A DNA stretch of 64,000 nucleotides, taken from positions 844 to 64,843 of the forward strand of contig JBGPHD010000001.1 of the NCBI GenBank assembly GCA_041484135.1, read 5' to 3'. The position numbers and the translations under genes are program-made. Shown here in pieces: positions 6,974 to 62,441 of the stretch; within the stretch, counting starts at the first letter, position 1, and the number at the start of each line of letters is the position of its first letter. This stretch comes from Gemmatimonadota bacterium. GTDB taxonomy: Bacteria > Gemmatimonadota > Gemmatimonadetes > Gemmatimonadales > JACORV01. The notes under the pieces are model-generated. The model did no database searches, was not told the DNA's origin, and was given only the letters and a program-made list of their open reading frames with translations.

Positions 6974-6974
6974 G

Positions 6975-7639
<665 letters not shown>

Positions 7640-14861: not shown

Positions 14862-17831
14862 TCAGGCCTCCTCCTCGAACCGCGCGTCGTGCTCGCCCGA
14901 GGCCTGGAACGAGACGGCCGCGCGCACCCCGGCGCCCCACGCCGACACGTCCGCCTTGACTGCCTGCGCATCCACCAGCGTCTCCTTCGGCGGCGCGCGG
15001 AGCCACGGTGCGACCGTGATCCAGAGCGGCGGCCCGACGCGGCGCCGCACCCCGATATCGAGCACGCCCTTCCGCCGCCGCAGCCGGAGGTCGTAGACCG
15101 TCTCGCCGCATCGCAGGCCACGGACGATGAGCGGATCCCAGGTGCCGGGGAGCTGCGGCGCGATGGTCATCCGTCCGCCCGGTGCATCGGGCCGCACCCC
15201 GAGCAGCCCTTCGACGAGCGGCGCCAGGACCATCGCCGCCGAGGCCGCCTGGTCCGGGCAGACCCCGGCGGCGCGTTCCGCGAGCCCGTTCAGCGCCTCA
15301 TCGAAGACACCACCCTGCCGCGCGAAGGCGAGGCCCACGTTCGCGGCCAGGTGCCGGCCACCGGCCTCACCCCATCCGGCCCGGTACTCCGCGAGCGCCG
15401 ACCAGCCGGTGACGAGCGGCCACACCGTCCCCGCGTAGGCGCCGGCGGGGTCGAAGTGCGGGTCGTCGGAGGGGAGGAGCCGCACGCCCCAGCCGGTCGT
15501 GAAGCGCGCGCCGGCGAGCGCGTCGAACCAGCCACGCGCGCGGACCGGGTTGGCGGCGCCGAGGAGCAACGGCAGGCTCGCCATCGCCGTCAGGGACCAG
15601 GACACCGATCCATCCCGCTGCCGGTCGAGCGCATAACGCCCATCCTGCTCGCGGAAGAGATCGCGCTCGATGGCTGTGCCGGCCCGGGCGGCGCGGGCCC
15701 AGCAGTCGGCGGCGAAGCGGGCCTTGCCGAGCACCTCGGCGGCGTGGGCCAGGTCCTCGAGCGCCGAGCGCCAGATGGCGGCCAGCGCGAGCGTGACGTC
15801 CGCGCCGCCCAGGGGCCCGGACTCGATCCACCCGTGCCCGACCCCGGCGTTCTCGATGAGGCCGTCGCCGTCGGTGTCGGTGGACAGGCAGAAGGCGAAG
15901 GCGCGCTCGACGTGCGGCCAGATGGAGCCGACGAACTCCGCGTCGCCGGTCCACGCGAGGTAGCGGGCGACCAGCAGCAGGTAGAGGGGGGTGGCGTCCG
16001 CGGCGTCGTAGTGGAACTGGCCGGAGGTGCTCGCTTCGTGGAGCACCTTCCCGGTGACGTCCTGCCGGTCGCCGAGGAAGCGGATCACCTGCCTGACGAC
16101 GGAGTGCTCGCCCGCGGCGAGCAGCGCGAGCGCGGACCAGCAGGCGTCTCGCGTGACGAACCACGCGTGGCCCGGCCGGCCGGCGCCCCACCCCGGCCGC
16201 GAGGACGCGTAGCCGGCGGCGAGCGACCGGCCCACGCCGGGCGCGTCCACCACGAACGCGTCGAGGCGGCGCTTCGCCCACTCGACGGCGCGCCCCAGGT
16301 GGTCGTCCTCGGCCACGACCGAGAGCCGGGCCTCCCGCACCGTGGTGGCGCGCTGGGCGCGCTGCCGCACGAGACCCGCGACGCCGAGCCGCCGCACCGC
16401 GCGCAAGGACCGCTCGAACTCGGCGCGTGACGCGCCGCCGGCGATGGCGAGCCGGAACGGGCCCCCGAGCGGGGCGGTCACGGTGCACTCGACCACCGGC
16501 ACGCCCTCGACGTGGAGCGCCTTCATCTGGATCGCGGCGGGCCCGCCCGCGAAGAGCACCGCCACCCCGTCGTCGCTCTCCGACTCCACCACGGCCACCA
16601 GGCCCTGCGCGCTGCGCCGGAACCGGAGGTTCCCGCCGCATCCCGCGGGAAAGGGCCAGGTCCGCCGAAGATCCAGCCGTAGCGTGATCTCCACGCCGGC
16701 GGCGGAGCGGCCCACTGACGCTCGGCCCTTGCGGGCCGCGTGGTACTCGACCAGCACGATCGGGTGCTCGAGCGCGACGAACGTCGTCTCGCTGATCCGG
16801 TGGCGCGGCGTCTCCAGCGTGCGCACCGCGACATCGGGCGTCACGGTGATGCGGGTGCCGGTCGCGGGTTCCCCGTCCACCGCCACGTCCCACGCGGCGA
16901 CGGCGCGGTGCGGGTGGATCCACACCTCGCGGATGCCGAGCCGGTCCCCGCCGACCAGCAGCGCACGGCGGCCGGCGAGGTCGAACCCCTCGTCCGCCTC
17001 GACCGCGCTCTCGAGCGCGATGGGGTCGGTGGCCGGGTCGGGGAGGGCGCCGTCGAGGTCGAGCGGCTCGGGCAGCACCAGCGCCTCCGAGGGCGCGGCG
17101 ATCGTGCCCGGCTCCGGCCAGTAGGCGCGCTCGGTGCTCTCGGCGGCGCCGGCCGCGAGCGCGTTGCGCACCAGACGGCCCAGCTGGGCCCTGAGCCGCG
17201 GATCCTGGGCCGCGAAATGGACGAACGCGCCGACGCAGACCACGTGGCCGCGGCCCAGGGCGTACTCCCACGCGACGATGCGGTCCGCGTTCTGCAGCGC
17301 GAAGGCCCGCTCGACCGCCACGACGCGTCCTTCGGCGGGCCGGACCCCGCCCGCGTAGCAGGCCCACGTGTACGCCTCGCCCGCGGCCGGCGCCCAGGTG
17401 TAGGTCCCGTTATGCAGGCCGGCGACCAGCGGATGCGGACCGTAGGTCGCGAGGCCGCGGACGTGCGGATAGGCCTTGAGGGCGCGGAAGGCGCCCTGGT
17501 ACCAGGGGTCGGCGTCGTCGTCCCAGCGGCCGTCGCCGATGTCGTTAGGCGGGGCGGACTCGAGCCCCAGGGCCGTCACCAGCGCCGCGGCCCGGAGGGT
17601 GAGGAGGACCTGGTGCCCCGCCGCGGCGAAGGTGCGCAGCGGCTCGGCCGCGAGCTCGCCCAGGGGGACCGACGCGTGCACCCAGACCGCGTCCGACCGC
17701 GCCACCGCTGCGCCCAGCTCCCGCGGCTCGTACCGCCTGGCCTCGAGCCCCTCCTCGCCCTGGAGCCACGACCAGGCCGCGGCCTCTTCGGCGGGGCCGT
17801 TCCGGGCGATGAACGCGACCCGCAACGTCAC
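14862..17831 (-). CDS. Amylo-alpha-1,6-glucosidase/GDE_C-like six-hairpin enzyme with N-terminal GATase1-like domain
   Basis: The frame is open to 18539, but the first 236 codons are shadow sequence. The GTG at 17831 overlaps the upstream TGA (GTGA). 989 aa. VTLRVAFIARNG...GHVVCVGAFVHF at the N-terminus. C-terminal (alpha/alpha)6-like stretches DATPLYLLLVARYLAWTGD, DGDGLIENAGVGHGWIE, GTVWPLVTGW. No signal peptide. Confidence 0.7.
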   Translation of the reverse strand: MTLRVAFIARNGPAEEAAAWSWLQGEEGLEARRYEPRELGAAVARSDAVWVHASVPLGELAAEPLRTFAAAGHQVLLTLRAAALVTALGLESAPPNDIGDGRWDDDADPWYQGAFRALKAYPHVRGLATYGPHPLVAGLHNGTYTWAPAAGEAYTWACYAGGVRPAEGRVVAVERAFALQNADRIVAWEYALGRGHVVCVGAFVHFAAQDPRLRAQLGRLVRNALAAGAAESTERAYWPEPGTIAAPSEALVLPEPLDLDGALPDPATDPIALESAVEADEGFDLAGRRALLVGGDRLGIREVWIHPHRAVAAWDVAVDGEPATGTRITVTPDVAVRTLETPRHRISETTFVALEHPIVLVEYHAARKGRASVGRSAAGVEITLRLDLRRTWPFPAGCGGNLRFRRSAQGLVAVVESESDDGVAVLFAGGPAAIQMKALHVEGVPVVECTVTAPLGGPFRLAIAGGASRAEFERSLRAVRRLGVAGLVRQRAQRATTVREARLSVVAEDDHLGRAVEWAKRRLDAFVVDAPGVGRSLAAGYASSRPGWGAGRPGHAWFVTRDACWSALALLAAGEHSVVRQVIRFLGDRQDVTGKVLHEASTSGQFHYDAADATPLYLLLVARYLAWTGDAEFVGSIWPHVERAFAFCLSTDTDGDGLIENAGVGHGWIESGPLGGADVTLALAAIWRSALEDLAHAAEVLGKARFAADCWARAARAGTAIERDLFREQDGRYALDRQRDGSVSWSLTAMASLPLLLGAANPVRARGWFDALAGARFTTGWGVRLLPSDDPHFDPAGAYAGTVWPLVTGWSALAEYRAGWGEAGGRHLAANVGLAFARQGGVFDEALNGLAERAAGVCPDQAASAAMVLAPLVEGLLGVRPDAPGGRMTIAPQLPGTWDPLIVRGLRCGETVYDLRLRRRKGVLDIGVRRRVGPPLWITVAPWLRAPPKETLVDAQAVKADVSAWGAGVRAAVSFQASGEHDARFEEEA

Positions 17832-20053
17832 AACCGCACCTCGATGGGTTCGTCCATGCGCCCGCGCGCGGCCTCGTTCCCGTTCACGCGCACCAGCAAC
17901 CGGTCCGCCTCGCGGATGACGTCCACCACGGCCCCCTGCATCGGCAGCCCCAGCGCCTCGAAACCGTCCAGCGGCAGCGGCATGGGATCCACCACGCACC
18001 GGCCCTCGGCGGCGGGCCTGAGCCCGATCACGTACGACACGACGAGGTCGTTCACCCACGAGTGCTGATGATCGTCGATGCCGCGGTACGCGGACGGCCG
18101 GCCCGTCACCGGATGGTAGTGCTCGAAACCGTTGGGCCGCGCCATGTCCCCGTCCCAGAACATCATCCGCACGAACTTGCTCAGGAACTCCGCCAGGTGC
18201 GCGCGCAGCGCCGGCAGGTGCTCCCGCGCGACCCGCGCGATCGCCTCGGCGATGTGGCTGTTCGTCATCGGCCAGACGCGCCCGTTCCCCGGGGCGTCGT
18301 GCCGCCTGCCCTTCCACGCCCCGCCCGCGTCGTACAGCGGATCGGTGCCGCTGGTCGACGGCACCGGGAACGGCTTCCAGAACTGCCGGGGGTCGAAGAG
18401 GTGCTGCACGAACCCCGCGAGGTAGTCGGGCATGATGAGATCCGTGGCGTACGGAAGGAACGCGACCGCCGAGCGCGCCGCCGTCCGCCGCCCGGTGGCG
18501 GCGTTGACGTCGCTGAACATCCCGGCCCTCGCGTCCCACATCTTCTTGCGGACCGCCGTCGCCACCAGCTCGGCGTGGGCCCGCCAGCGCTCGCCGTCGA
18601 GCCCCGCCCGCGGCGCGAGCCGCGCCAGGACGCGGAAGAGCCGGTACGCGTAGGTGGTCGCGTCCACGCCCTTGAGCCGCAGGCGCCCCTCGCCGGCGCC
18701 GCGGTCGGCGTCCGGGTCCACGGCCAGGAAGCGGGAGCCCGCCGCCTGCCCCGTCTCGTCACGGTCCACCACGTCGGTGAGCCCGGAGCCCTCGCGATCG
18801 CACGCGGACCGGAGCCACTCCGCATAACGCTCGAGCACCGGCACCGCCTCGCGCAGGAACGCGTCGCTGGGATGCACCGCGTCGAGCGCGAGGAGCGCAC
18901 CGCCCCAGTCCGCGTGACAGGCGTCCGTCCCCTCCAGCGGGCCGGCGTGGACGCTGGCCGGGAGCGATCCGTCGGGACGCTGATGCGCCAGGAAGGTGCG
19001 CAGCACGCCGCGCGCCCACTCGGGGTCGCGCGACCAGCGGAGCTCGCGCACGTGGGCCGGCGCGCTGTACGCGTGGGCCTGGTGGCGATCGGCGATCCCC
19101 TCGGCCACCGTCGGCGCCAGGTAGTGACCCCATCCCGGCGCGATGCCGTTCAGGCGCAGGCCGTACCATCGGTACGCCCAGTAGCGCTCGAAGTACGGGT
19201 CCGAGCAGCGGAATCGCGGCACGCTCTCGAAGTACTCCTGCCAGGAGGCCTTGCTGGCCGCGGCGAACGAGGACGCCTTGCGCGGCGGGCCCGGGTCGGC
19301 CCGCGGGGCCGACGAGGCGAGGGCCGGCTCGACCCGCAGCGCCACCGCGAGGCGCGCCGCGCCGCCCGGCGGGATCTCGATGGCGCGATGCACCCCGAGG
19401 TACGCCAGCCCGCCCGGCCCGCCGCCGTCGAGCGCGGCCTTGCTGGCCAGCCCGCCGCGGGTGGGATCCCAGCGATCCCAGAACGGCGTGTACCGGAACC
19501 GCGGGTGGTCGGCCGTGGCGTCGGAGCGGATCGCGCCCCAGCTGTCGGTGCCGCGCGCCAGCGCGAGCTGGAGACGCGCCGTGAGCGCGTGCCCGTCCCG
19601 GTCCCTGAGGACCCGCGGCCACTCCAGCTCCGCGCCCGTCCATACCACGTCGGCGCCGGTGAGCTCCGCGCCGGGCGCGGTCGTCCACGCGACGGCGTGC
19701 ACCGTCATCGGGATGACGCCGAGGTTCACGAGCTGCCACTCGCTGCCGAGGACGAAGCCCGGCAGGACCATGCGCGTCTCGATCACGTCGAGACCCGCGC
19801 TGCTCTTGTAGGGCACCTCGAGCGCCGCCGGCGTCCAGCGCCGCGTGCCCGGCTGCAGGACGATCTCCCGGCCCGCCTCGTCCACAAAGCCCACGGTGAA
19901 GAGCGGGGCCAGCGGATACTCGAACAGGTGCGCCTCGTCCCAGAATCCCGGCGCGTCGAGCCAGACCGGGAAGGGCGGCGCCCAGATGAGCCCCTCCCCC
20001 GCCGACAGGTACCACTTGTCCCCGCGCGCCAGCAGCTCGAGCGGGTCGCTCAC
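17828..20053 (-). CDS. GH63/MGH1-like (trehalase-like) six-hairpin glycoside hydrolase
   Basis: The frame is open to 20305. Start taken as GTG 20053 (GGAG 7 nt upstream; 26 nt after the kinase stop). 741 aa. YWAYRWYGLRLN, RPDGSLPASV, GRVWPMTNSHIAEAI, FEHYHPVTG. No signal peptide. Confidence 0.7.
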   Translation of the reverse strand: MSDPLELLARGDKWYLSAGEGLIWAPPFPVWLDAPGFWDEAHLFEYPLAPLFTVGFVDEAGREIVLQPGTRRWTPAALEVPYKSSAGLDVIETRMVLPGFVLGSEWQLVNLGVIPMTVHAVAWTTAPGAELTGADVVWTGAELEWPRVLRDRDGHALTARLQLALARGTDSWGAIRSDATADHPRFRYTPFWDRWDPTRGGLASKAALDGGGPGGLAYLGVHRAIEIPPGGAARLAVALRVEPALASSAPRADPGPPRKASSFAAASKASWQEYFESVPRFRCSDPYFERYWAYRWYGLRLNGIAPGWGHYLAPTVAEGIADRHQAHAYSAPAHVRELRWSRDPEWARGVLRTFLAHQRPDGSLPASVHAGPLEGTDACHADWGGALLALDAVHPSDAFLREAVPVLERYAEWLRSACDREGSGLTDVVDRDETGQAAGSRFLAVDPDADRGAGEGRLRLKGVDATTYAYRLFRVLARLAPRAGLDGERWRAHAELVATAVRKKMWDARAGMFSDVNAATGRRTAARSAVAFLPYATDLIMPDYLAGFVQHLFDPRQFWKPFPVPSTSGTDPLYDAGGAWKGRRHDAPGNGRVWPMTNSHIAEAIARVAREHLPALRAHLAEFLSKFVRMMFWDGDMARPNGFEHYHPVTGRPSAYRGIDDHQHSWVNDLVVSYVIGLRPAAEGRCVVDPMPLPLDGFEALGLPMQGAVVDVIREADRLLVRVNGNEAARGRMDEPIEVRL

Positions 20054-20078
20054 CGCGGGGCTCCGTCGCGCGCCGGAC

Positions 20079-23000
20079 TCACGGCCGCACGCCGAGCGCG
20101 ACCAGGGCCGAGCGCGCCGAGTCGCGGACCGCCGTCCACGGGGGCTCCGCGTAGAAGAGGAGATCCTGCGCCCGGCGGAAGTAGCGCGTCGCGCCCTCGG
20201 TGTCACCGTGCGCGGCGAGGAGTCTCCCGTGCAGCAGCCACGCGGGTCCGCGCACGACCTGGTCCGCGAACGCGGCGAGGAAGTCCTGCGCTTCGAGGAG
20301 CGCAAAAGCGCCGGCCGTGTCCGCCGCGGCCAGCCTGAGCCGCGTCAGGCGGAAGCGCGGGATCGTCTGCGCGAAGAGCAGCGTGAACGGCGCGCGCGCG
20401 GGATCCAGGGCATTGAGGCCCGCCGCGTACGCCGCCTTGGCCCGCGCGGTGTCCCCTTCCGCCTCCGCGATCCTCCCCGCCAGCGCCGAGCGCAGGCCGC
20501 CCACGGCGGGCGGGCCCGTGCGCGCGAGACCCTCGAGCGCGTTGAGCTGCGCGCGCGCCGCCGCGATGTCGCCCCGCTCGACGGCCACCGCGCCCGCGAG
20601 CCAGAGATCGGCGGCGCGCTCCTTGGCGTCGGCGGGCGGGGCCGACAGCCGGGTGCGGACCGCGCGCGATGCCGCGTCCGCCGTTCCATACCCGAGCAGG
20701 AACGCCCAGGAGTGCACCGGCTGCAGCTCCGCTTCGCCGGGCTGCGCGGTCGTGTGCCCGGCGAGCCGCTGCTCGGCATCCCGCCAGCGCCCCTGGGACA
20801 GCAGCGCAGCCACCAGGAAGCGCGCGCCTTCGCTGCGCACCCTGGGGTCGCGGCCCCTGCGGGTCATCTCCTCGAGCGCGAGCTGCGCGCTGGCCAGATC
20901 GGCGCGGTCGCGCGCCGTCTGCGCGCCGGAGATCGCGCCGAACTCGAGCACCCTGTCGGCGAAGGTGCCCACCCGCGCCAGCATCGCGCGCTTCTCGCCC
21001 GTGGTGCCGAACAGCACGACCCGCCCGATCGCCAAGGTGCGGCCGATGGGCGACGTCGAGTCCGCGGCCAGGTAGCGGCGGATGTGTTCTTCCGCGTCGG
21101 TCCGTCGGTCGAGCCAGAGGTCGAGCGAGACGAGGTGCATCACCGCCGGCGCCGCGTCGGGCCACAGCTCCAGCGCGCGGTTGAACGCCGAGACGGCGGA
21201 GTCCGGTGGCAGGCCCGCCTGCGCGCCGAAGTGGTAGCGGACCTCGCCGAGGGCGAACCAGCCGTCGAGGAACGTGGAGTCCTCCGCCACGATGCGGCGC
21301 AGCTGGTCTTCGGCCTCCGCCACGCGGCCGCTGTCGAAGAGCATGAGGTAGGCGGCGATGAGCCGGCCCTCGAGGGACCCCACCCGCGGGAGGACGCCCT
21401 TCACCCCGCGCACCGCCTCGCGCACCCGGTCCTCCGTCGGCTCCTGCTGGAGGTCCGCCAGGAATCGCTTGTACCGGGCCGGTGCGAAGGTGGAGTCGAG
21501 CGCCAGGACGCGGTCGTACTCGCGCACCGCCGCCGCGTAGTCCGCGCGGCGGAAGGCGTCGTCGGCGGCGTCGAAGGCGCGCACCGCTTCCAGCGACGCG
21601 GGCGCCTGGCTGGCGCCGCCGGCGAGGCCGAGTTCGCGTCCCGCGCGGCCCTGCGTCAGGCGCAGCACCACGGAGTCGGCGACCGCGAGGTCGAGCCCGG
21701 GCGCGACGAGGCGGCCCAGGTCGAGGGCGTGCCCGGTCGCCACTTCCACCAGCCGGAGCTGGACCTCCCGGCCGGCGCCGGACCGGCCGACGAAGCCGTG
21801 CAGGATCCACGACGCGCCGGCCCGCCGTGCCGCCGCGCGCACCTCCGCCGACGCGGGGTCGCCGCCCGGCGGCGCGAAGACCCGCGGATCGGCGACCCGC
21901 ACCGCGGTGAAGCCGCCTAACTGATACCGGAGCAGCGGGAGGAGCGAGTCCGCCGCCGCCGTGTCGCCATCGAAGCGCATGATGGCGATGCCGTGCGTGG
22001 CCGGCCCCGCCGCCGCCGGGGTCGGCCCGGCGCGACCCTTGGCGAGCACGCCCATCCGGATGGCCGCCGCCACCACCACCCCGGCCGCCGCGACGCCCCA
22101 CCAGAGCCGGTGCCGCCAGGGCACGCCCCCGGCCGCCGATCGGGCCGCGAACGGCTCCAGCGCCGCGAGCAGCGCGTCCACGCTCGGCCAGCGGTCCTCG
22201 CGCCGCGGCGCGACCGCGCGCGCCACCACTTCCGCGAGCCCGTCAGGCAGGTCCGGCCGCAGGCGGCGGGTCGCGCGCCGCGCCTCCGACGTCGCGATGG
22301 GCCAGCCGCCGGAGTCCTGGTCCTCGAGCCGCTTCCCCGTCAGCATCTCGAACGCCACCACGCCCAGCGCGTACACGTCGACCCGCCCGTCCACGTCGGA
22401 CGTGCCGGCCGCCTGCTCGGGCGCCATGTAGCCCGGCGTCCCGATCGCCACGCCCGAATGCGTCATCCGCTCGGCCGCCGCGGCCCGCGAGATGCCGAAG
22501 TCGGCCACCAGCGCGCGGCCGCCCTCACGCTCGAGCAGGATGTTCTGCGGCTTGATGTCGCGGTGCACCACGCCCTGCCGGTGCGCGTAGGCGAGCGCGC
22601 TCCCCACCTCGCGCATCACGCGCAGCGCCTCGGCCACCGGGAGCGCCCCCGCCTTGATGCGCTCGGCGAGCGATTCACCCTCGACGTAGGCCATGGCGAA
22701 GTAGGGAGTGCCCATGTCGCCCCCGGCGCCGTACACCGGGACGATGTGCGGATGCGAGAGCCGCGCCGCCGTCTCGGCTTCGCGCCGGAACCGCTCGACG
22801 CTCGCCGGACGCATCGCATCGAGGGCGGGCAGCACCTTCAGCGCGGCGAGCCGGCCCAGCTTGCGGTCACGGCCGAGGAAGACCCACCCCATCCCGCCGC
22901 GGCCGATCTCGCTCACCACCTCGTACTCGGCCCGCGCCGCATCGGCCAGGCGTGCGCGCACCGTGTCGCGCGCCTCCCGCTCGTCGGTCCCGGTGAGCGA

Positions 23001-26594: not shown

Positions 26595-29375
26595 GTGGCG
26601 CTAGTGTACTTGTTCCGCTATTCCCCGGCAAGCACCATCGCGCTGCTGCTCGCCGCCACCGTCGCGGCCCCCTCCGCAGTCCTTGCGCAGGGGAGCGGGC
26701 GCGTGATCGGTGTGGTGCGGGACCGCGAGACGGGCCAGCCGGTGGACGGAGCCAACCTGCTCCTCGCCGGCACGCCGCGCGTCCAGCTCACCGACAACGC
26801 CGGGCGCTTCGTCTTCCTCGGCATGACGCTCGGGGAGTTCGTGCTGGTGGTGCGGCGGGTGGGGTACGAGGCCCTGTCGGTCCGCGGGCGGGTCTCCGGC
26901 GCGGCCCCGACCGAGCTCACGATCCAGCTCCACGCCACGGCGACCCCGACGCTCGGCGAGATCGAGGTCTCCGCCAAGCCGTTCCAGCGCACCGACGAGC
27001 CCGCCAGCGTGCAGACGGTGGACCGCCAGCAGCTCCGGATGGCCCCCGTCACGACCCTCACGGACGTGATCGACATCCAGGCGGGCGTCTCGGACGGCCA
27101 CTTCCGCGGCGGCCGCACCGGCCAGGCGATCCTGATGATCGATGGCCTCGACGTGCGCGACCAGTTCGCCCTGAGCGAGCTCGGGACCACGATGGACCTC
27201 TCGCCCACCGCGATCGAGGAACTCAGCGTCGTCACGGGCGGCTTCGGGGCGCAATACGGGAACGCCCTGTCGGGCGTGGTGGACGTGGCGACCCGCAGCG
27301 GCTCGCCTAACCACTGGGAGTCGCGCGCGTCGCTGAACGGCGGCCAGCTGCTCCCCGACCGCCTCGGCTACGGCCAGTCGCGGACCGAGCTCTCCGCCGG
27401 CGGCCCGCTGCGGTTCCTCGGCAGCGGCGTCACCCTGTTCATGGACGCCACGGCCTCCACCGCGGAGGACGCGGAGCCGCGCCTCCACGGCCTCACCTGC
27501 CTCACGCCCAGCCCCGGGGACAGCTGCCTGTTCGCGCGCGCGATCATCCCGCACCATCGGGGCGACCAGCTCACGGCATTCTCGCGGATCGACTTCCCGG
27601 TCTCGCCCGTGACCTCGTTCACGCTCACGGGACTCTGGACCCGCGGCCAGCAGGAGCTCTACTCCACGCGGTTCAAGTACGATCTGGACAACTACCTCGC
27701 CGAGCGGCGCACCTCGGCGCACGTCGCCTTCAGCGCCCAGCACCAGGCCGGCGGCGGCTCGCGCGCCGCGCTGCTGACGGCCCGCGTGGCGCTCACCCGG
27801 ACCGCCAGTTACCTCGGCGTGCCGGTGGCGGGAGACCGGCCCGGCACCGGTGGCCTGCCGTGGCGGCGGCTGCGCTTCCGGGGCGAGGACTTCGTGGCCG
27901 AGCCCGTGGAGCAGCAGATCCAGGAGGCGAAGGGCGTGCCGGGCTACGTGCTCGCCGATGACTTCACCGGGCCCGTCTACGGCGCGTGGGGCCGCGGCCT
28001 CTTCGTCACGAGCGGCACCAGCGGCATCGTCCAGCGGCACCAGACCGACATGCTCACGGTGGACCTCTCGAGCACGACGCAGGTGAGCCCGCAGCATCTG
28101 CTCGTGATCGGCGGCACCTTCAAGCTGATCCACGTGCAGGCCTACGAGCGGACCGCCGCGGCGCTCGCCGCCGCCTCCCCCAGCGCGGCGTCGTTCTTCC
28201 CCCGGGTGGCCTCGCTCTACATCACCAACACGCTGAAGCCCCTGGGCGGCGCCACCCTGACCCTCGGCGCGCGCCTCGAAGCCTTCAACCCGCGGATCCA
28301 GTTCACCACGGACCGGCGGACCGTTGGTGCGCCGATCGAGAACGCGAAGTGGAGCACGCTCGTGATGCCGCGGATCGGCTTCGTCATGCCGCTCACCGAC
28401 GTCGGTCTCAGGCACACCGTGGCCCGGTGGAACTTCGGCATCTCCAGCCAGCCGCCGGCGTTCCAGTTCTTCTTCGATTCGGGCGTCGATGACAGCCTGA
28501 ACACGACGCTCCGGCGCCAGGGGAATCCGGCCCTCGGCTTCGAGCGCGCCACCTCGTACGAAGCGGGGATCACGCAGCTCCTGACGCCGGACCTCCTGGT
28601 CGGCGTCACGGGCTACTACAAGGACCTGACCGGGCTGGTGACGAGCGGCGTGCCGTTGGCGGCCGCGGGACGGCTCTTCTCGAACCTCGACGGGGGGCGG
28701 ATCTACGGCGTGGAAGCGAGCCTCGACCTGGGGAGTCATCTCGGCCGGAAGCTCCGCCTCTCCTACAGCTACCAGCAGGCGCAGGGGACCGTGTCCACGC
28801 CGTTCGATTCGACCTCCGCGACGCCCGGGACGCGCGGGCTGGAGATCCCGCTGGCGTTCGATCGCCGGCACGCGATCGACCTGCTCGCCATCTGGGCGCC
28901 GCCCGAAGGGCGCTGGAACGCTTCCCTCTCCGGCACCGCGGGGAGCGGTTACCCGATCCCGGGCCGGACCGACGGACAGCGGCTGCCGTGGAGCGTGCTG
29001 GTGAACGGCCGCCTGACGATGACGGCGCACTGGCGTGGGCATTCGGTCGAGTTGTACGCGGAGGGGCGCAACCTGCTCGCCTGGCGGACGCTGCGCACGG
29101 CGCGTCCCGAGACGGGCAACGAGACCGTGATCCTGGATTCGCTGGAGGCGCGCGCCTCGCGTGAGACCCAGGGCGCGCTCACGATCCCGAAGGAGTCGTC
29201 GCTCTACACGCCGATCTTCGACCTCGACAACGACGGGCTCCTGAGCGCGGCCGAGCAGTATGCGGCGCGCCGCGCCGCCCTCCTCGATGCCGCCGATCCC
29301 ACCCTCTACTTCGGGCCGCCGCGCCTGGTGCGGGTGGGCATCGTGATATCGCTCCCCGGCGCTATAACGCCTTGA
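26595..29375 (+). CDS. TonB-dependent receptor with N-terminal carboxypeptidase-regulatory-like domain
   Basis: 926 aa. Signal STIALLLAATVAAPSAVLAQG. CarboxypepD_reg-like GRVIGVVRDRETGQPVDGANLLL...GRFVF. Plug region VQTVDRQQLRMAPVTTLTDVIDIQAGV...AILMIDGLDV. Long beta-barrel. Start ambiguous (GTG 26595, GTG 26604, TTG 26610). Confidence 0.85.
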   Translation: MALVYLFRYSPASTIALLLAATVAAPSAVLAQGSGRVIGVVRDRETGQPVDGANLLLAGTPRVQLTDNAGRFVFLGMTLGEFVLVVRRVGYEALSVRGRVSGAAPTELTIQLHATATPTLGEIEVSAKPFQRTDEPASVQTVDRQQLRMAPVTTLTDVIDIQAGVSDGHFRGGRTGQAILMIDGLDVRDQFALSELGTTMDLSPTAIEELSVVTGGFGAQYGNALSGVVDVATRSGSPNHWESRASLNGGQLLPDRLGYGQSRTELSAGGPLRFLGSGVTLFMDATASTAEDAEPRLHGLTCLTPSPGDSCLFARAIIPHHRGDQLTAFSRIDFPVSPVTSFTLTGLWTRGQQELYSTRFKYDLDNYLAERRTSAHVAFSAQHQAGGGSRAALLTARVALTRTASYLGVPVAGDRPGTGGLPWRRLRFRGEDFVAEPVEQQIQEAKGVPGYVLADDFTGPVYGAWGRGLFVTSGTSGIVQRHQTDMLTVDLSSTTQVSPQHLLVIGGTFKLIHVQAYERTAAALAAASPSAASFFPRVASLYITNTLKPLGGATLTLGARLEAFNPRIQFTTDRRTVGAPIENAKWSTLVMPRIGFVMPLTDVGLRHTVARWNFGISSQPPAFQFFFDSGVDDSLNTTLRRQGNPALGFERATSYEAGITQLLTPDLLVGVTGYYKDLTGLVTSGVPLAAAGRLFSNLDGGRIYGVEASLDLGSHLGRKLRLSYSYQQAQGTVSTPFDSTSATPGTRGLEIPLAFDRRHAIDLLAIWAPPEGRWNASLSGTAGSGYPIPGRTDGQRLPWSVLVNGRLTMTAHWRGHSVELYAEGRNLLAWRTLRTARPETGNETVILDSLEARASRETQGALTIPKESSLYTPIFDLDNDGLLSAAEQYAARRAALLDAADPTLYFGPPRLVRVGIVISLPGAITP

Positions 29376-29817
29376 TCCGGGAGATCAGCTCCTCGTCCTG
29401 GCGCCGGTGCCCCAGCTCCGCCTCGGTGTGGGTCCAGCGCAGGATCCCCGCCTTGTCGATCAGGAAATAGGCCCGCTTCGAGAAGAACTTGTCCAGGAGC
29501 AGCGTGTCGTAGCTCCGGCAGACGTCGCGCTTGAAATCCGAGAGCAGATCGATCGACATCCGTTCCTTCGCCTTGAACTCCCGGAGCGAGGGGACGGCGT
29601 CCACGCTGATCGGTAGCACCCGCGTCCCCAGCGCCTCGAACTCCGCGTAGTCGGCCGAGAACGAGCACAGCTCGGCCGTGCACGTGCTGGTGAACGCGAG
29701 CGGGAAGAACGCCAGCAGCACGGTCGAATCGCCGCGGAACAGGGAGAGCGTGACGTCGGACCCGGAGGTCGAGGGGAGGGTGAAATCGGGCGCGGGCTGG
29801 CCGATGATCGGAGGCAC
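29362..29817 (-). CDS. Peroxiredoxin (AhpC/TSA, Bcp/PrxQ-like)
   Basis: 151 aa. GTG start with AAGGA 7 nt upstream. PAPDFTLP...VLLAFFPLAFTSTCTAE (PxxxTxxC peroxidatic Cys context). Confidence 0.9.
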   Translation of the reverse strand: MPPIIGQPAPDFTLPSTSGSDVTLSLFRGDSTVLLAFFPLAFTSTCTAELCSFSADYAEFEALGTRVLPISVDAVPSLREFKAKERMSIDLLSDFKRDVCRSYDTLLLDKFFSKRAYFLIDKAGILRWTHTEAELGHRRQDEELISRIKAL

Positions 29818-29889: not shown

Positions 29890-31293
29890 CTAGAGGATGA
29901 GGCGTGCGAGCGCCGCCGCGCCGCGATCGAGCGGGCCGTGGGCGAGACCGGCGAGCACGAGCAGCAGGGCGAGCAGCCAGGCCACCGCCAACGCCCCGCG
30001 GCCGGGCCTCGGCGCCGCCACGGAGACCGGGCGCCCGACGCCGAGCACGCTCAGGATCTCCCGGAGCAGGAGCAGCGCGAGCAAGGCGCCGGCAGCTGCG
30101 CCGGCGAGCGCCATCACCACCCACCCCTCGCGCCAAGGCGCGAGGAAGAGCTGCCGGCGCACCACGAAGCCCGCGGTCCCCGGGAGCGCGATGAGAGCGG
30201 CGAGCCCCACGAGGTAGGGCCCGGCCGCGGCCGGTCCGGGTGCGGGTCCGCCGGCGTCGGGCGCCGGAAGGTCCGGCCCCTCGTTTCCCACGCCGATGAG
30301 GGTCAGCAAGACGGCCGACTGGGCCGCCGCGACCACCAGGACCGCCGCCAGCGCCGCCGACCCGGCCGAGAGGCCCGGCACGACGAGCGCCGTCACCACC
30401 AGTCCCGCCTGCACCACCGACACGTACGACAGGAGGCAGCGCGCGTCGCGGCGCGGCGTAAGGCAGGCCACGCCGAATCCCAGCGCCGCGGCCGCCGCCG
30501 CGGACAGCAGCAGCGCGAGCGGCGCGCCTGACGGCGCGAACGCCAGCACCAGCCGCACCAGCACCGCGCCGACCCCCGCCCACAGCGCCGACGCCGCGAA
30601 CAGCGCGACGAGCGGCGAGGGGTCCCGCATCAGCCACGGGCACCAAGCATAGAAGGGCGCCGCCCCCCAGCGGACCAGGAGCCCCGCCAGCACCAGCGTC
30701 GCGCCCGCGAGCGCCGCCGGCTGCGCGGCATCGGCCGTGAGCGCGGCGGTGATGTCGGCGAGACGGGTGGCCCCGGTGGCGCCCGTGAGCAGCGCGAGCC
30801 CCAGCGCGCCCAGCGCCGTGGGCGCGAGACTGGTCCGCAGCAGCCGTCCCCAGCCCCGGTGGCCGTTCGCCAGGCTGCCCAGGCCGGCGAGGACCACCAT
30901 CGCGGCCGAGCTGATCTCCAGGGCGAGGAAGAGGCCGAGCGTGTCGGCGAGGCTGGCGGCGGCGACGAGGCCGAGCGCCGCGACCACCAGGAAGAAGCCG
31001 TCCTCCGCCAAGGGCTGCGGGCGCGCCGCCCGCCCGCCCACCAGCGAGGCGAGCACCAGTCCCGCGAGGACGACCACCTTCACCGCCTGCGAGAAGGCGT
31101 CCACGCGGTAGGCCGTGTAGAGGAACTCGTCCGCCACGCCGAGCGTGGCCAGCGCGGCGGCGAGCGCCGCCATGCCGCCCGCGGCCGTGACGATCAGCGG
31201 CGCGCGGCGGCCCTGGCCCGGCATCATGGCGAAGAGCGCGAGCGCGGTAAGGGCGAGGACGAGCTCGGGAGCGAGCGCCACGAGGCGGCTCAC
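29890..31293 (-). CDS. NuoN/ND2-like antiporter-type membrane subunit (divergent)
   Basis: 467 aa with about 13-14 TM segments. YRVDAFSQAVKVVVLAGL, LGLFLALEISSAAM and VRWGAAPFYAWCPW resemble NuoN signatures. The GTG start overlaps the upstream TGA. Confidence 0.7.
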   Translation of the reverse strand: MSRLVALAPELVLALTALALFAMMPGQGRRAPLIVTAAGGMAALAAALATLGVADEFLYTAYRVDAFSQAVKVVVLAGLVLASLVGGRAARPQPLAEDGFFLVVAALGLVAAASLADTLGLFLALEISSAAMVVLAGLGSLANGHRGWGRLLRTSLAPTALGALGLALLTGATGATRLADITAALTADAAQPAALAGATLVLAGLLVRWGAAPFYAWCPWLMRDPSPLVALFAASALWAGVGAVLVRLVLAFAPSGAPLALLLSAAAAAALGFGVACLTPRRDARCLLSYVSVVQAGLVVTALVVPGLSAGSAALAAVLVVAAAQSAVLLTLIGVGNEGPDLPAPDAGGPAPGPAAAGPYLVGLAALIALPGTAGFVVRRQLFLAPWREGWVVMALAGAAAGALLALLLLREILSVLGVGRPVSVAAPRPGRGALAVAWLLALLLVLAGLAHGPLDRGAAALARLIL

Positions 31294-31586
31294 CGTGGCA
31301 CCGCTCCGCCGCCACCTTCGCCCCGGCCCGCGGCGCCCGCGAGATGCGCGCCGATCACCAGCACGCCGGCCGCCATGGCCGCGCCGACCAGCACGGCCGC
31401 CACGACCTGACCCAGCGCGCTGCGGGACCCCGACAGCGTGGTGAGGGCCGCCACCGCGAGGACGGCCGAGGCCATCATGAGCTCGAACGCGAGGAGCGCG
31501 CCGAGCACGGTGCGCCGCCCGATGAACGCGCCGAGCCCGAGGGAGAACAGCGCGGCGGCGACGATGAGCGTGGTGGTCAGCGTCAT
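31290..31586 (-). CDS. NuoK/ND4L-like membrane subunit (divergent)
   Basis: Trimmed to the ATG at 31586 (ATGA overlap). 98 aa with 3 TM segments. LFSLGLGAFIGRRTVLGALLAFELMMASAVL parallels the NuoK RRN...IELML region. Confidence 0.65.
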   Translation of the reverse strand: MTLTTTLIVAAALFSLGLGAFIGRRTVLGALLAFELMMASAVLAVAALTTLSGSRSALGQVVAAVLVGAAMAAGVLVIGAHLAGAAGRGEGGGGAVPR

Positions 31587-32095
31587 GTCACGCGGTCCGC
31601 GTCGCCGCGCGGCCGGCCGGCGGCCCGCGCGAGCACCAGCGCGCCGATCCCGCTGACGGCGAGGAGCACGCCGAGGAGCTCGAACGCCGCGACCCCGTCG
31701 GTGAGCAGGCTCCAGCCTAACCACGATGCCGCCACTTCCCTCGCGCCTCCGGCGGCCGGCCACGGCGTGCGCACGATGACCGTCACCAGGGCCCCGAACG
31801 CGATCAGGCTCACGAGGGCGGCGGCCGCCAGGCGGTACGGGCGCGGCGGGCGCGGGGCGATGGGCGCGAGCTTCGCGGCCGCCAGCAGAACCGCGGGAAG
31901 CACGGCCGAGAGCAGCAGCACGATGAGGATCGCGAGGAAGTCGTCGCCGAGGGCCAGGCAGACCCCCGCCACCCCGAGCATCGAGAGCGCGAAGCCCGCG
32001 ATGGCCGGCGCGGCGCCACGCGCGACCGCCACGACCACGGCGCCGAGGATCGCCAGCGTCGCGGCCGCGCCGAAGACGAAGCCGGCCCAGTTCAC
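31583..32095 (-). CDS. NuoJ/ND6-like membrane subunit (divergent)
   Basis: Trimmed to the GTG at 32095 (GTGA overlap). 170 aa. The helix layout and the C-terminal FELLGVLLAVSGIGALVLAR parallel NuoJ. Confidence 0.6.
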   Translation of the reverse strand: MNWAGFVFGAAATLAILGAVVVAVARGAAPAIAGFALSMLGVAGVCLALGDDFLAILIVLLLSAVLPAVLLAAAKLAPIAPRPPRPYRLAAAALVSLIAFGALVTVIVRTPWPAAGGAREVAASWLGWSLLTDGVAAFELLGVLLAVSGIGALVLARAAGRPRGDADRVT

Positions 32096-32790
32096 TGCGG
32101 GCGCCCCACCACCACGAGTGTGCCGACGAGATTGAGCAGCGCGACCGGCGCGAGCGCGCGCCACGCCAGCGCGCGGCGCCGCTCGTCCGTCAGGCGCCCG
32201 ATCCGCCGGGCCACGATGAGCACCACGGCCATCAGCGCCACCGTCTTCCCGAGGAGCCACACCGGACCCGGCAGCCCGGGCCCGGCGTAGCCCGCGAGGA
32301 AGAGCGTGCTCCCGACCGCGCACCCCGTGAAGAGATGCAGGCCCTCGGCGAAGCGCCGCACGCCCGAGGCGCCCCCCGGCGGCCGCACCCCGTGGCTCCC
32401 CACCGCGGCGAGCGCGACGACGAACACCAGGGCGGCGACCGGCTGCAGGAGGGCGAACGGCAGTGTGTTCCGCTGGGCGAGCACGATGTTCCGGAGATCG
32501 AGGGTCTGCGCGGTCAGGGCCACCGCCGCCAGGGCGAGCAGCATCGCGACCCCGCACCCCGACCACGACACCGCGGCGCGCAGCCGCGCGGCCACCGCCT
32601 GCCAATCGTCACCGGTGGTCCCCGTGACCGCGAGGGTGAGCGCGATACCGGCGTAGCCCGCGAGGAGGATGAAGAGCCCGTACGGCAGCGCCGCCAGCGG
32701 CTCCGCGGCCGTGAAGGGCACCAGCGTCGCCAGGATCAGGGCCGCCGCCGCGAGGCCCACGCCTTCGGCGAGATCGTCGCTCGAGGTCAT
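32092..32790 (-). CDS. Truncated NuoH/ND1-like membrane subunit (divergent)
   Basis: 232 aa, against about 320 or more for NuoH. LRAAVSWSGCGVAMLLALAAVALTAQTLDLRNIVLAQ and the C-terminal GKTVALMAVVLIVARRIGRLTDERRRALAWRALAPVALLNLV parallel NuoH. The N-terminal part and the acidic loop are absent. Confidence 0.55.
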   Translation of the reverse strand: MTSSDDLAEGVGLAAAALILATLVPFTAAEPLAALPYGLFILLAGYAGIALTLAVTGTTGDDWQAVAARLRAAVSWSGCGVAMLLALAAVALTAQTLDLRNIVLAQRNTLPFALLQPVAALVFVVALAAVGSHGVRPPGGASGVRRFAEGLHLFTGCAVGSTLFLAGYAGPGLPGPVWLLGKTVALMAVVLIVARRIGRLTDERRRALAWRALAPVALLNLVGTLVVVGRPQ

Positions 32791-32803
32791 GGAGCTTCGC
32801 GGG

Positions 32804-33139
32804 TCAAAGGGCCCGGATCCGGATCGCGTACCCCACCGGCGCGGCCGCGACCACGACGAACACGACCAGGTACACGACGGCCTGCCAGGAGTGGAAGAAG
32901 CGGAACACGATGCCGGCGGGAAGGAGGAAGATCAGCGCCGACGACACCGCCACGGCGACGAGCAGCGCCATGACGTCGCGCCACGGACTGAACCGCGTCG
33001 CGTCCTCCGGCGCTCCCGCGGCCTTGCCCGCGCCGGCGCGCGTGCCCCGCAGCAGGGCCACGGCCACCACCCCCGCCACGAAGCCGGCGCCAAGGAGGAC
33101 CAGAAGGAAGCGGTACTGGAGGATCGTCGCGGCGTCCAT
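32804..33139 (-). CDS. NuoA/ND3-like three-helix membrane protein (weak call)
   Basis: The track ORF 32804..33253 runs through the tRNA, so I trimmed it to the ATG at 33139. 111 aa with three hydrophobic helices, ending in GYAIRIRAL. Position and topology fit NuoA, but the conserved acidic motif is not seen. Confidence 0.4.
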   Translation of the reverse strand: MDAATILQYRFLLVLLGAGFVAGVVAVALLRGTRAGAGKAAGAPEDATRFSPWRDVMALLVAVAVSSALIFLLPAGIVFRFFHSWQAVVYLVVFVVVAAAPVGYAIRIRAL

Positions 33140-33144
33140 GAGGA

Positions 33145-33217
33145 TGGAGCGGAAGGGATTCGAACCCTCGACCCCCTGGTTGCAAACCAGGTGCTCTCCC
33201 AACTGAGCTACCGCCCC
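33145..33217 (-). tRNA. tRNA-Ala: tRNA-Ala (anticodon UGC), CCA not encoded
   Basis: Minus strand: GGGGCGGTAGCTCAGTTGGGAGAGCACCTGGTTTGCAACCAGGGGGTCGAGGGTTCGAATCCCTTCCGCTCCA. Folds as a cloverleaf: 7-bp acceptor stem with the G3:U70 Ala identity pair, D-arm GCTC/GAGC, anticodon loop TTTGCAA, T-loop TTCGAAT. Confidence 0.9.
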
Positions 33218-45540: not shown

Positions 45541-46400
45541 CCGGACGCCGGGGCGTGACCGCGACCGACAAGGTGATGCTCGCCTTTCTCGCCGCGAACA
45601 CCGCGGTCGTGGTCTGGCACGCCCCGGTGATCGGGGCCTGGCCGTGGCTCCTCGTCGGCAACGCGCTGGCGGTGGCGCTGATCGTGCTGCTCCAGCGCGC
45701 GCCGGTGACGCCGTTCCTCGCGTTCATGGGCGGCGGCTACGGCCTGATCCTCACCCTGGCCTTCTACACCCAGCTCGGCATCATCGAACTGGACGTGGCC
45801 AGCGTGCGCGACGCGATGGTGCAGCGGTGGGAGGCGGCGCTCTTCGGGGGCGAGGTGAGCGTGACCTGGCACGCGCTGATGCCGAACCTCACGCTCTCGT
45901 GGATCCTGCATTTCTGCTACGGCGCGTACTACTGGATCGTGGCGGCGGCGACCTACTGGCTCTTCTTCCGCGCGCCGCGGGGCGCCTTCGAGCGGGGGAT
46001 GTTCCTGCTGACGCTGGGATTCTACGCCTGCTACGTGATCTACTCGCTGCTCCCGGTGGCGGGCCCGCGCTACTTCTACGGCAGCGCGACAGGACCGATC
46101 ACCACGGTGCTCCCCGCGCGCATCGTCCACCGGCTCCTCGAGGGCGGGTCCGCGTACGGCACCGCGTTCCCGTCCTCGCACGTCACGGCATCCTGGTGCG
46201 CGGTGCTGGCCCTCTGGCGGGACGCGCGGAAGGTCGCCCTGCTGCTCGCGCCGGTGGCCCTCGGACTGGCGTTCGGCACCGTGTACGGCCAGTTCCATTA
46301 CGGCGTGGACGCGATCGCCGGCGCCGCGCTCGCCCTCTTCCTCTACTTCGTGAGCGAGCCGCTCAGACTGGCTTTGCGACCGGCCGTTCCACCGTCGTAG
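45531..46400 (+). CDS. PAP2_3/Aur1-like integral membrane phosphotransferase
   Basis: About 289 aa with 6 or more TM segments. Start ATG 45531 or GTG 45537 (GGAGG upstream; overlaps the SDR stop). Motifs FPSSHVTASW and GQFHYGVDAIAG fit the PAP2 C2/C3 boxes of inositol-phosphorylceramide/sphingomyelin synthase-type enzymes. Confidence 0.65.
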   Translation: MAVTGRRGVTATDKVMLAFLAANTAVVVWHAPVIGAWPWLLVGNALAVALIVLLQRAPVTPFLAFMGGGYGLILTLAFYTQLGIIELDVASVRDAMVQRWEAALFGGEVSVTWHALMPNLTLSWILHFCYGAYYWIVAAATYWLFFRAPRGAFERGMFLLTLGFYACYVIYSLLPVAGPRYFYGSATGPITTVLPARIVHRLLEGGSAYGTAFPSSHVTASWCAVLALWRDARKVALLLAPVALGLAFGTVYGQFHYGVDAIAGAALALFLYFVSEPLRLALRPAVPPS

Positions 46401-47460: not shown

Positions 47461-47555
47461 GGGCGGTTCGCGTGAAGCTATACGGTTGACGCCCGGGCCG
47501 CCAAACCCCATTCTCCTAGCCGACGAGAATCCCTGAGCACCCCACCGGAGCCGCC

Positions 47556-61902: not shown

Positions 61903-62441
61903 ATGCCCTGCAGCTGCCGCACGTAGTTCACGACGTGCCAGCGGTCCACGCCGCGGATCTTGTCGCCGTAGCGCGGCATGATGCCGCGGCCCTGGCGGAT
62001 CATCGCGTAGAGGTAGCCGTCGCTGCGCTGCTTGGTCATGTCGGTGACGAGCGGCGGGACGTAGCCCATCTTGCCCGCCACCGTGCCGTCGCCGGCCCCC
62101 GCCGGGCCGTGGCAGACGATGCAGTAGGTGTCGTAGATGCGGCGGCCTCGCGTCAGCGAGGCGGTCGTGCGGGCGGCCGGGTTCACGATCTGCCTGAGAT
62201 CGGTGGAGATGTCGAGCGAGTCCTCATGACCGGTCACGGGCACCGAGCCCACCGGCAGGGTGAGGGGGCGCGCCGCGCCGGGCGGCGCCTCGAAGGGCCG
62301 CGTCACCACCTGGTCCCGCATGGTGGTGAACCACGGCACCTTGCCGACCGCGTTGTCGAGCGTGGTGCATCCCGCCGCGCCGAGCGCCAGGCACACGGCG
62401 AGCGCCCCGCGCCCCGCGCCCCGCCCCGGCCGCTCAGACAT
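61899..62441 (-). CDS. actE: Alternative complex III monoheme cytochrome c lipoprotein ActE
   Basis: 180 aa. Lipobox LGAAGC. Single heme motif CIVCHG. Distal MPRYG. Confidence 0.8.
   Translation of the reverse strand: MSERPGRGAGRGALAVCLALGAAGCTTLDNAVGKVPWFTTMRDQVVTRPFEAPPGAARPLTLPVGSVPVTGHEDSLDISTDLRQIVNPAARTTASLTRGRRIYDTYCIVCHGPAGAGDGTVAGKMGYVPPLVTDMTKQRSDGYLYAMIRQGRGIMPRYGDKIRGVDRWHVVNYVRQLQGM

Follow-up and report, generated by a model that had tools for sequence, protein, structure and literature searches.

Introduction

What becomes of a membrane module of respiratory complex I when it is encoded apart from the rest of the enzyme? This question is raised by a 64,000-nucleotide stretch of DNA from a Gemmatimonadota bacterium (NCBI GenBank assembly GCA_041484135.1, contig JBGPHD010000001.1, positions 844 to 64,843; the whole stretch is called the window hereafter), in which five consecutive open reading frames (ORFs) encode proteins related to NuoA, NuoH, NuoJ, NuoK and NuoN. 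These subunits, which correspond to ND3, ND1, ND6, ND4L and ND2, constitute the proximal membrane (P_P) module of complex I. The initial annotation of the window saw in the five ORFs an isolated orphan module, possibly repurposed for ion conduction. Far from being isolated, they prove to belong to a lineage-specific paralog of an 11-gene nuo operon found at the same locus in related bacteria, and on one contig the two stand in tandem. We consider it probable, from the sequence comparisons reported below, that the five ORFs form a non-catalytic paralog module under relaxed purifying selection, most plausibly giving rise to a small NuoJ/K/N-like body in the membrane whose role is non-energetic, while its NuoA- and NuoH-like parts are eroding.

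Gene Organization and Family Assignment

The five ORFs lie on the minus strand, exactly with the sizes and coordinates first described: A' (NuoA-like, 32804-33139, 111 amino acids (aa), three predicted helices), H' (NuoH-like, 32092-32790, 232 aa), J' (NuoJ-like, 31583-32095, 170 aa), K' (NuoK-like, 31290-31586, 98 aa) and N' (NuoN-like, 29890-31293, 467 aa). A'H'J'K'N' is our own name for this divergent paralog family, and "primed" designates its members. Both the subunit set and the gene order match NuoA/H/J/K/N. A gap of 13 nucleotides (nt) separates A' from H', and three 4-nt overlaps join the other genes, namely GTGA at 32092-32095, where the J' start overlaps the H' stop, ATGA at 31583-31586, where the K' start overlaps the J' stop, and GTGA at 31290-31293 at the K'/N' junction. 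All five ORFs display a normal coding pattern, with a G+C content of 0.91-0.95 at third codon positions (GC3) versus 0.48-0.57 at second positions (GC2). Consensus promoter and terminator scans between 29200 and 33500 gave no match, a result which is uninformative for this phylum.

Regarding the homology to NuoA/H/J/K/N, it is borne out by Pfam for three of the proteins: H' matches PF00146 with 73 bits (cut-off 27), over profile positions ~100 to the end only (i.e., the C-terminal two thirds), J' matches PF00499 with 40.3 bits (cut-off 33.2) and N' matches PF00361 with 60.5 bits (cut-off 21.5). K' falls narrowly under the cut-off of PF00420 (22.8 versus 26.1 bits) and scores 25 bits with the NCBIfam NuoK model. 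A' has no Pfam match, PF00507 included, and is 34-35% identical to the bona fide NuoA of two related loci, L007 and L021 (tblastn E-values of 3e-9 to 9e-12); the homology of A' and K' is hence established via intermediate sequences and synteny. In NCBIfam, the top models are NuoH, J, K and N, with all equivalog scores far under their cut-offs (85 versus 519 for NuoN and 70 versus 305 for NuoH). An AlphaFold2 model of N' (pLDDT 89.6, pTM 0.92) predicts 14 helices in a NuoN-type antiporter-like fold, with helix breaks in transmembrane helices (TM) 7 and 12 at residues 209-217 and 367-374. Its best solved matches in Foldseek are NuoN chains (TM-score 0.85-0.89), with NuoM, NuoL and MrpD (TM-score 0.82-0.87 for the latter) behind.

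The Mrp/Mnh antiporters had been named as an alternative family. Against the window proteins, NCBIfam models of Mrp subunit D reach far lower scores (E-values of 1.6e-8 to 6e-4), and the cluster contains neither MrpA, B, E, F or G genes nor any further membrane gene. This assignment was rejected on the HMM ranking, which favors Nuo, and on the absence of Mrp-specific genes from the cluster. As to the complex I partners, tblastn searches with intact NuoB, C, D, I, L and M queries from L007 found nothing in the 64-kb window beyond the five ORFs, and Pfam detected no other Nuo family among 41 additional ORFs with GC3 support and a length of 90 codons or more, in agreement with the early statement that NuoB-G, I, L and M are missing from the window.

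Loss of the Quinone Site and of the Proton Path

In complex I structures, TM1, the TM1-2 loop and the TM5-6 loop of NuoH form, together with the NuoA loop, the quinone cavity and the interface with NuoB/D/C/I. Compared with intact orthologs and solved structures, the window proteins have lost these elements and most of the residues of the proton path. Residues 16-228 of H' align to residues 92-320 of Escherichia coli NuoH, so that TM1 and the TM1-2 loop are missing, and the TM5-6 loop (ETNRAPFDIPEAESE in intact orthologs) is ~14-16 residues shorter and has lost all of the acidic residues of that segment; the short N-terminus and the deleted PFDxxEAESE loop had been correctly recognized from the outset. 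A' has lost the YESG loop motif and the Asp of TM2, consistent with the lack of acidic motifs described before, while K' retains the first membrane Glu ('AFELMM') and carries Gly in place of the second, again as initially read. In J', the Tyr of the TM3 'YVGA' motif is replaced by Leu.

The initial annotation treated the NuoN-like protein as intact, which it is not. N' keeps the TM5 Glu (Glu126), and it has exchanged the Lys residues of TM6, TM7, the 'DxK' motif and TM12 for Arg (Arg150, Arg208, Arg285 and Arg379, respectively), the central TM8 Lys for Leu and the TM7 His for Tyr (Tyr215). All that remains in the window of the canonical ionizable relay is N' Glu126 and the first K' Glu. A'H'J'K'N' would thus be unable to dock a quinone module, because H' has neither TM1 nor either of the cavity loops and A' lacks the loop motif, and unable to run the canonical proton relay, because the Lys residues of N' are now Arg or Leu and both the second K' Glu and the J' Tyr are gone; Arg at former Lys sites cannot cycle protons. 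By established knowledge of complex I, the alignments show a catalytically disabled module, capable neither of quinone-module docking nor of the canonical Lys/Glu proton relay.

Across the primed family as a whole, no canonical ionizable residue of the membrane core is conserved. Indeed, the TM8 Lys of N' is lost in every primed member, the TM5 Glu is absent in L169, the TM7 position is uncharged in L167, L168 and L169, the TM12 position bears an uncharged residue in some members, and the first K' Glu, in TM2, has given way to Gln in L167 and to Leu in L168. Residues that the family does conserve include 'YRVDxxSQxxK', 'GGxRE' in J' and 'RRS' in K'. Amino-acid composition has shifted as well: the window proteins contain more Ala and less Lys, Tyr and Glu than intact orthologs (for N', 114 versus 86 Ala, 1 versus 8 Lys and 5 versus 15 Tyr). 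Such a drift is expected under relaxed constraint combined with GC pressure, and the Lys-to-Arg changes therefore need not be adaptive.

Residue loss in a NuoN-like protein was also encountered outside the family. In a Gemmatimonadota metagenome-assembled genome (MAG; GCA_043816545.1, locus L172, 1910-3361), protein P0221 has no TM5 Glu and carries Arg in place of the TM12 Lys. It follows a NuoM-like gene, in a genomic context different from that of the module, and may represent a separate case within the phylum.

The Same Locus in Related Bacteria

Proteins of the N' type are rare in the databases searched. Among 5.8 billion clustered proteins, only five close relatives of the window N' were found (55-68% identity), the next matches being ordinary NuoN with at most 30% identity, and an exhaustive HMMER profile search of 1.84 billion representatives delineated only about six 50%-identity clusters, whose genes stand in a (A'/H')-J'-K'-N' context, usually followed by a peroxiredoxin gene. 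A metagenome scan revealed, in addition, a related group whose NuoN is 34-38% identical to the window N' and which carries a complete 11-gene operon at the same position. In at least 20 loci, the layout is tRNA-Ala, nuoABCDHIJKLMN and then peroxiredoxin. For L007, the order nuoA-B-C-D-H-I-J-K-L-M-N was verified gene by gene with Pfam, and 4-nt overlaps join the genes; seven Gemmatimonadales MAGs in the GTDB set carry the 11-gene operon.

The flanks tie the reduced and the complete loci together. In the window, a tRNA-Ala(tgc) gene (33145-33217, minus strand; ARAGORN, Rfam 71.5 bits) precedes A' and an AhpC/TSA peroxiredoxin gene (29362-29817, minus strand, 151 aa; PF00578, 110.6 bits) follows N', both as initially annotated. 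The 3' end of the tRNA gene lies only 5 nt ahead of the A' start codon (ATG), leaving no space for a Shine-Dalgarno sequence. A tRNA-Ala gene also precedes nuoA in the full-operon loci L006, L007, L008, L013, L019 and L041 and stands ahead of the reduced loci L021, L001-L003 and L169 (in the latter, the response regulator domain of a histidine kinase and the tRNA-Ala are directly upstream of the module), while the sequences of L084 and L166 start inside the same tRNA-Ala. Genes for a histidine kinase, S9 and M6 peptidases, a TonB receptor, PD40 and NHL proteins are common to the window and its relatives, and the S9 peptidase next to the window module clusters with a protein named Gemmatimonadales bacterium, which, together with the neighboring genes, assigns the contig to Gemmatimonadales. 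The window peroxiredoxin is 60-73% identical to those encoded after nuoN in full-operon loci and 77-85% identical to those following other primed modules. Since this gene is often lost beside the module (it is absent or truncated in L001, L085, L167, L168 and L171), the peroxiredoxin is a neighbor and not an obligate partner.

Two observations on these flanking genes may be added. In L083 (2034-2489), the peroxiredoxin gene beside the primed module, whose product is 81% identical to that of the window, is interrupted by an in-frame stop and was therefore predicted as two separate genes (60 and 85 aa), reflecting either a recent pseudogene or an assembly error. In L008 (7330-7403), ARAGORN reports a tRNA-Ala(cgc) inside the nuoL coding region, probably a false positive.

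The relation between the two kinds of loci is most directly seen in L089 (CAYHQJ010000027.1), where an intact run from nuoD to nuoN (N at 6055-7476) and a divergent module occur in tandem on the same strand. The second set begins ~35 nt past nuoN with A' (119 aa) and H' (231 aa), continues with J', K' and N', keeps the 4-nt overlaps and is followed by a peroxiredoxin gene whose product is 77% identical to that of the window. The L089 H' is 52% identical and nearly equal in length to the window H' (231 versus 232 aa), and only 32% identical to intact NuoH. Moreover, the nuoN stop of L089 is followed by a short spacer (TGCTCCCCGGTCC) similar to the one found behind the tRNA-Ala in the full-operon locus L041 (TGCTCCCCGAGTCC). 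This likeness would fit a tandem duplication of the whole unit, the match being short and hence only suggestive.

In a neighbor-joining tree, 12 N' sequences are monophyletic with 100% bootstrap support, on branches that exceed the intact ones in length several-fold; long-branch attraction could inflate this value. Characters shared across the N' family, i.e., the H' truncation, 'WAG' in place of the TM8 Lys, and Arg at TM6, TM7 and 'DxR', are derived and also argue for monophyly. N' and the intact Gemmatimonadales NuoN together form a clade with 100% bootstrap support relative to Desulfobacterota-type and other NuoN. The window genes thus appear to be a partial duplicate of the 11-gene operon, and we infer that the clade of the window has since lost the parent operon from this locus. 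A less favored scenario is an in-place reduction of the resident operon, to which the position of the L089 module downstream of an intact operon is opposed; it would require re-insertion of a full operon in L089. A scan of genome contigs of GTDB species representatives with peptide patterns specific to the window's clade gave no match, the clade being either not represented there or masked.

Regarding the 11-gene operon itself, the nearest NuoN sequences beyond Gemmatimonadales come from Desulfobacterota/'Deltaproteobacteria' MAGs (~41-50% identity; L093-L165), and another Gemmatimonadota nuo operon, L152, encodes a NuoN only 43% identical to that of the 11-gene operon. These hints suggest that this operon type may have been acquired laterally.

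Selection on J'K'N' and Erosion of A'/H'

All 12 lineages possess J', K' and N' at full length and without frameshifts or stops, with synonymous sites near saturation between most of them. For the concatenated J'K'N' of the two closest pairs, the ratio of nonsynonymous to synonymous substitution rates (dN/dS; NG86, with bootstrap and same-method controls on intact genes) is 0.49 (95% confidence interval 0.37-0.63) and 0.40 (0.30-0.54), while intact nuoN at similar dS gives 0.15-0.16. Taken alone, J' ranges from 0.36 to 0.55, and A' from 0.47 to 0.69 versus 0.15-0.19 in three close intact pairs (median 0.23 over all intact pairs). Constraint on J'K'N' is thus relaxed about three-fold, yet dN/dS stays clearly below neutrality. 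These values agree with the original view that simple decay does not account for the locus.

The upstream half of the module behaves differently. L001 and L084 have lost H' altogether. L002 and L003 carry a shortened H', and their A' is absent or truncated, L002 being without most of A' and part of H'. Erosion extends to the strain level: over J'K'N', L002 and L003 share 99.5% identity, and yet the latter has lost a further 237 nt (79 codons, in frame) of the A'/H' remnant. In L166, L168 and L169, A' and H' are fused in frame to differing extents. Whatever the nature of the upstream remnant, its stop codon and the J' start overlap in 10 of the 11 loci. A' and H' therefore seem to be dispensable and eroding. 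Absence or frameshifting of the cluster in close relatives had been put forward as the mark of a decaying remnant; this pattern applies to A' and H', which are deleted, shortened or fused, and does not apply to J', K' and N', which are always present.

A Second Reduction at the Same Locus

One further locus, L021, has arrived at the A-H-J-K-N set by other means. In the S9 peptidase, J-K and N genes, its nucleotide sequence matches that of L041, a full-operon locus, with ~94% identity. Relative to L041, deletions in L021 have removed B, C and D (2.2 kb); nuoI is without its first 270 nt and survives as a 62-aa relic, and L and M are represented by small relics. Two in-frame deletions in nuoH have taken away 17 aa from the TM1-2 loop as well as the 15-aa acidic loop, the latter being also absent from H', while A, J, K and N keep all canonical residues. 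Since its junctions differ from those of the primed modules, L021 represents an independent, recent event reaching the same gene set. We considered L021 as a gene-conversion product of a primed module and rejected this origin, its nuoI, L and M relics standing against the clean 4-nt overlaps of primed modules. Of note, HipA-family toxin, RelE-like and Xre/HTH antitoxin-like genes are inserted in L021 (11953-14221) between nuoN and the peroxiredoxin gene.

This recurrence lends itself to a tentative and rather unlikely interpretation. J'K'N', alone or together with A'H', would then be maintained by selection as a non-catalytic 'pseudo-pump', i.e., a membrane body standing by itself, derived from the proximal module of complex I and serving a purpose unconnected with redox-driven proton pumping, and reduction to A-H-J-K-N including removal of the NuoH cavity loop would have occurred at least twice independently in Gemmatimonadales. 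If true, the recurrence would imply a reproducible selective advantage of keeping the sub-module once the enzyme is redundant. With only two cases, i.e., the old primed family and the recent L021 derivative of an L041-like operon, the recurrence may as well reflect a reproducible decay path as selection for the subset.

Probable Origin and Possible Role of the Module

The explanation that we favor, a non-catalytic paralog module, can be cast as a sequence of events. A nuoA-N unit would have been duplicated in tandem behind the tRNA-Ala, and the second copy would have lost B, C, D, I, L and M. L089 would preserve the intermediate (full operon, A'H'J'K'N', prx), and in the window's clade the parental operon would later have been deleted, yielding tRNA-Ala, A'H'J'K'N', prx. 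The module is presumably still translated, with J', K' and N' held in frame through their 4-nt stop/start overlaps, and these three proteins most likely assemble into a small membrane body with a structural or regulatory role. A' and H' may persist mainly as an in-frame leader ORF bringing ribosomes to J' by translational coupling.

Several points weigh against this explanation. All relatives are metagenome contigs or MAGs, and all of the evidence is drawn from sequence. The tandem state is known from one contig, L089, which stems from a co-assembly; since L171, its 87% identical relative, is cut off upstream, a chimeric join in L089 is conceivable. NG86 is distorted at 95% GC3, intact genes giving 0.15-0.4 by the same method, so that the contrast between J'K'N' and intact genes should be read as roughly three-fold and not as absolute. 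Evolution is moreover very fast, N' being only 37% identical between lineages whose peroxiredoxins are 82% identical, and both this rate and the lack of a conserved polar core would also fit a relic on its way out. Assembly into a subcomplex and the leader ORF are steps that we infer, and as our view is limited to the window, a partner complex encoded elsewhere in the genome is possible.

Some of these points lead to a plain decaying remnant without a function of its own, whose decay would be slow or whose constraint would reflect the avoidance of toxic misfolded membrane proteins or the maintenance of downstream transcription-translation flow. The loss of all catalytic residues, differently by lineage, would be expected of such a remnant, as would a dN/dS about three times that of intact genes, the compositional drift toward GC-rich codons, the deleted or fused H' and A' with their strain-level indel, and the frequent loss of the peroxiredoxin; furthermore, a GC content of 75-77% makes stop codons rare, so that the mere length of an open frame counts for little (the window has many long ORFs that are spurious). 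What makes a mere remnant rather unlikely in our opinion is that J', K' and N' have remained full length and frameshift-free in 12 of 12 lineages despite near-saturated synonymous divergence, with dN/dS confidence intervals that exclude 1, 4-nt overlaps preserved across lineages and an intact GC1/GC2/GC3 periodicity (GC1 denoting first codon positions). In addition, the same truncated H' length recurs in L089 and the window at 52% identity, and the module has outlived the deletion of the parent operon across a clade in which N' has diverged to 57% identity.

The ion-conducting module proposed initially would be a minimal Mrp-like path for cations, protons or other ions, built from E-channel subunits and one antiporter-like subunit and acting with some further partner. 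It could draw on the predicted NuoN-type fold, which retains the broken TM7 and TM12, on purifying selection, on the NuoN/K/J-like parts of Mrp complexes together with the structural match to MrpD, and on the invariance, within the window's own clade, of N' E126, R150, R208, R285 and R379 and of the first K' Glu. Across the whole family, the TM5 Glu, the charge at TM7 and the K' Glu are lost in some members and the TM8 Lys in all, leaving no canonical core residue conserved family-wide, and Arg, which cannot replace Lys in proton cycling, is also the change expected from GC-driven drift. As MrpB, E, F or G-like genes are absent and A' and H', the E-channel half, are dispensable, ion conduction finds no support in our data and we regard it as improbable. 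Even less credit, to the point of being very improbable, can be given to a split operon or isoform, in which the five proteins would serve as alternative membrane subunits joining the Q-module and NuoL/M of a complex I encoded elsewhere. The genome of Gemmatimonas aurantiaca contains two operons for complex I (Spero et al., 2015, PMC4453560), which makes a second complex plausible here, and the L089 module is co-oriented directly behind a complete operon. Nevertheless, the interface elements are precisely those lost (TM1 and the TM1-2 and TM5-6 loops of H', the loop motif of A'), H' and A' are absent in several close relatives that keep J'K'N', and no partner gene lies in the window, which covers 64 kb of a 68-kb contig.

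Other Features of the Window

Beside the module, the peroxiredoxin gene (minus strand) and a convergent TonB-dependent receptor gene (26595-29375, plus strand) overlap at their 3' ends by 14 nt (29362-29375). At the end of the window, a minus-strand group (60607-63980) comprising a 431-aa ORF (60607-61902), a cbb3-type/class I cytochrome c (61899-62441) and an NrfD-like polysulfide-reductase-type membrane protein (62958-63980) looks like part of an alternative complex III-type cluster running past the window end. Two long MGH1-like glycoside-hydrolase ORFs on the minus strand between 14862 and 20305 (14862-18539 and 17828-20305) overlap by ~700 nt as listed, the upstream start of the first being probably over-extended. 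The window also encodes a K+ channel with a TrkA domain (46363-47511) and a Pyr_redox_2/Reductase_C flavoprotein (53803-55008), which is either ferredoxin-reductase-like or possibly an NADH dehydrogenase of type II.

Significance and Comparison with Known Systems

Complex I is thought to have been assembled from modules, and the present locus offers a rare stepwise series of the dismantling of its operon, with the full operon, the tandem copy, the module alone and J'K'N' alone, to which L021 adds a fresh and independent deletion. If the proteins are made, they would constitute a natural 'dead' paralog of an energy-converting membrane complex and a test of which membrane-arm parts can fold and assemble by themselves. 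The locus also carries a warning for annotation: names such as 'NADH-quinone oxidoreductase subunit N/J/H' in Gemmatimonadales MAGs may not mean a working complex I.

Judged from its sequence relationships, A'H'J'K'N' derives from a known system and does not represent a new kind of machine. Our literature searches turned up no account of an A/H/J/K/N or J/K/N module that is duplicated and disabled; they yielded no more than generic categories of 'incomplete complex I'. With the P_P module of complex I, it shares the subunit set, the gene order, the NuoN-type 14-helix fold predicted for N' and descent from a genuine nuo operon, whereas it differs by the absence of the Q-module and NuoL/M from the window, the replacement of proton-path Lys, Glu and Tyr residues and a several-fold faster evolution. 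The Mrp (Mnh/Pha) antiporter likewise combines a NuoN/M-like MrpD, a NuoK-like MrpC and NuoJ-like elements and works without a redox module; unlike the present module, it retains the Lys/Glu relay, and its MrpA, B, E, F and G genes have no counterpart here. Paralogous subunits of complex I-type enzymes are also known, for instance the cyanobacterial NdhD/NdhF paralogs and the additional NuoM copy of some complexes. Like the module, they go back to membrane subunits duplicated within a lineage, but they keep their conserved charged residues and join a complete enzyme, while the module is a five-gene copy surviving without its parent operon.

The closest comparison is with the partial operons. 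Operons lacking the NADH-oxidizing subunits are regarded as working enzymes with alternative electron donors. Surveys recognize such 'partial' operons without NuoEFG next to a catch-all 'incomplete' complex I (PMC4453560; bioRxiv 10.1101/2025.03.13.643058), and among 11-subunit partial NDH-1 operons of this type (cf. PMC4453560), the one of Gemmatimonadales appears to be the direct parent of the module. Parent and module have in common the upstream tRNA-Ala, the downstream peroxiredoxin and the 4-nt gene overlaps, but the 11-subunit operons have retained B, C, D, I, L and M together with all catalytic residues, whereas the module is without 6 of the 11 genes and without these residues. The module is in this respect the opposite of the known partial operons: the proximal membrane part alone, which has shed its catalytic features, is still coding and has outlived the operon it came from.

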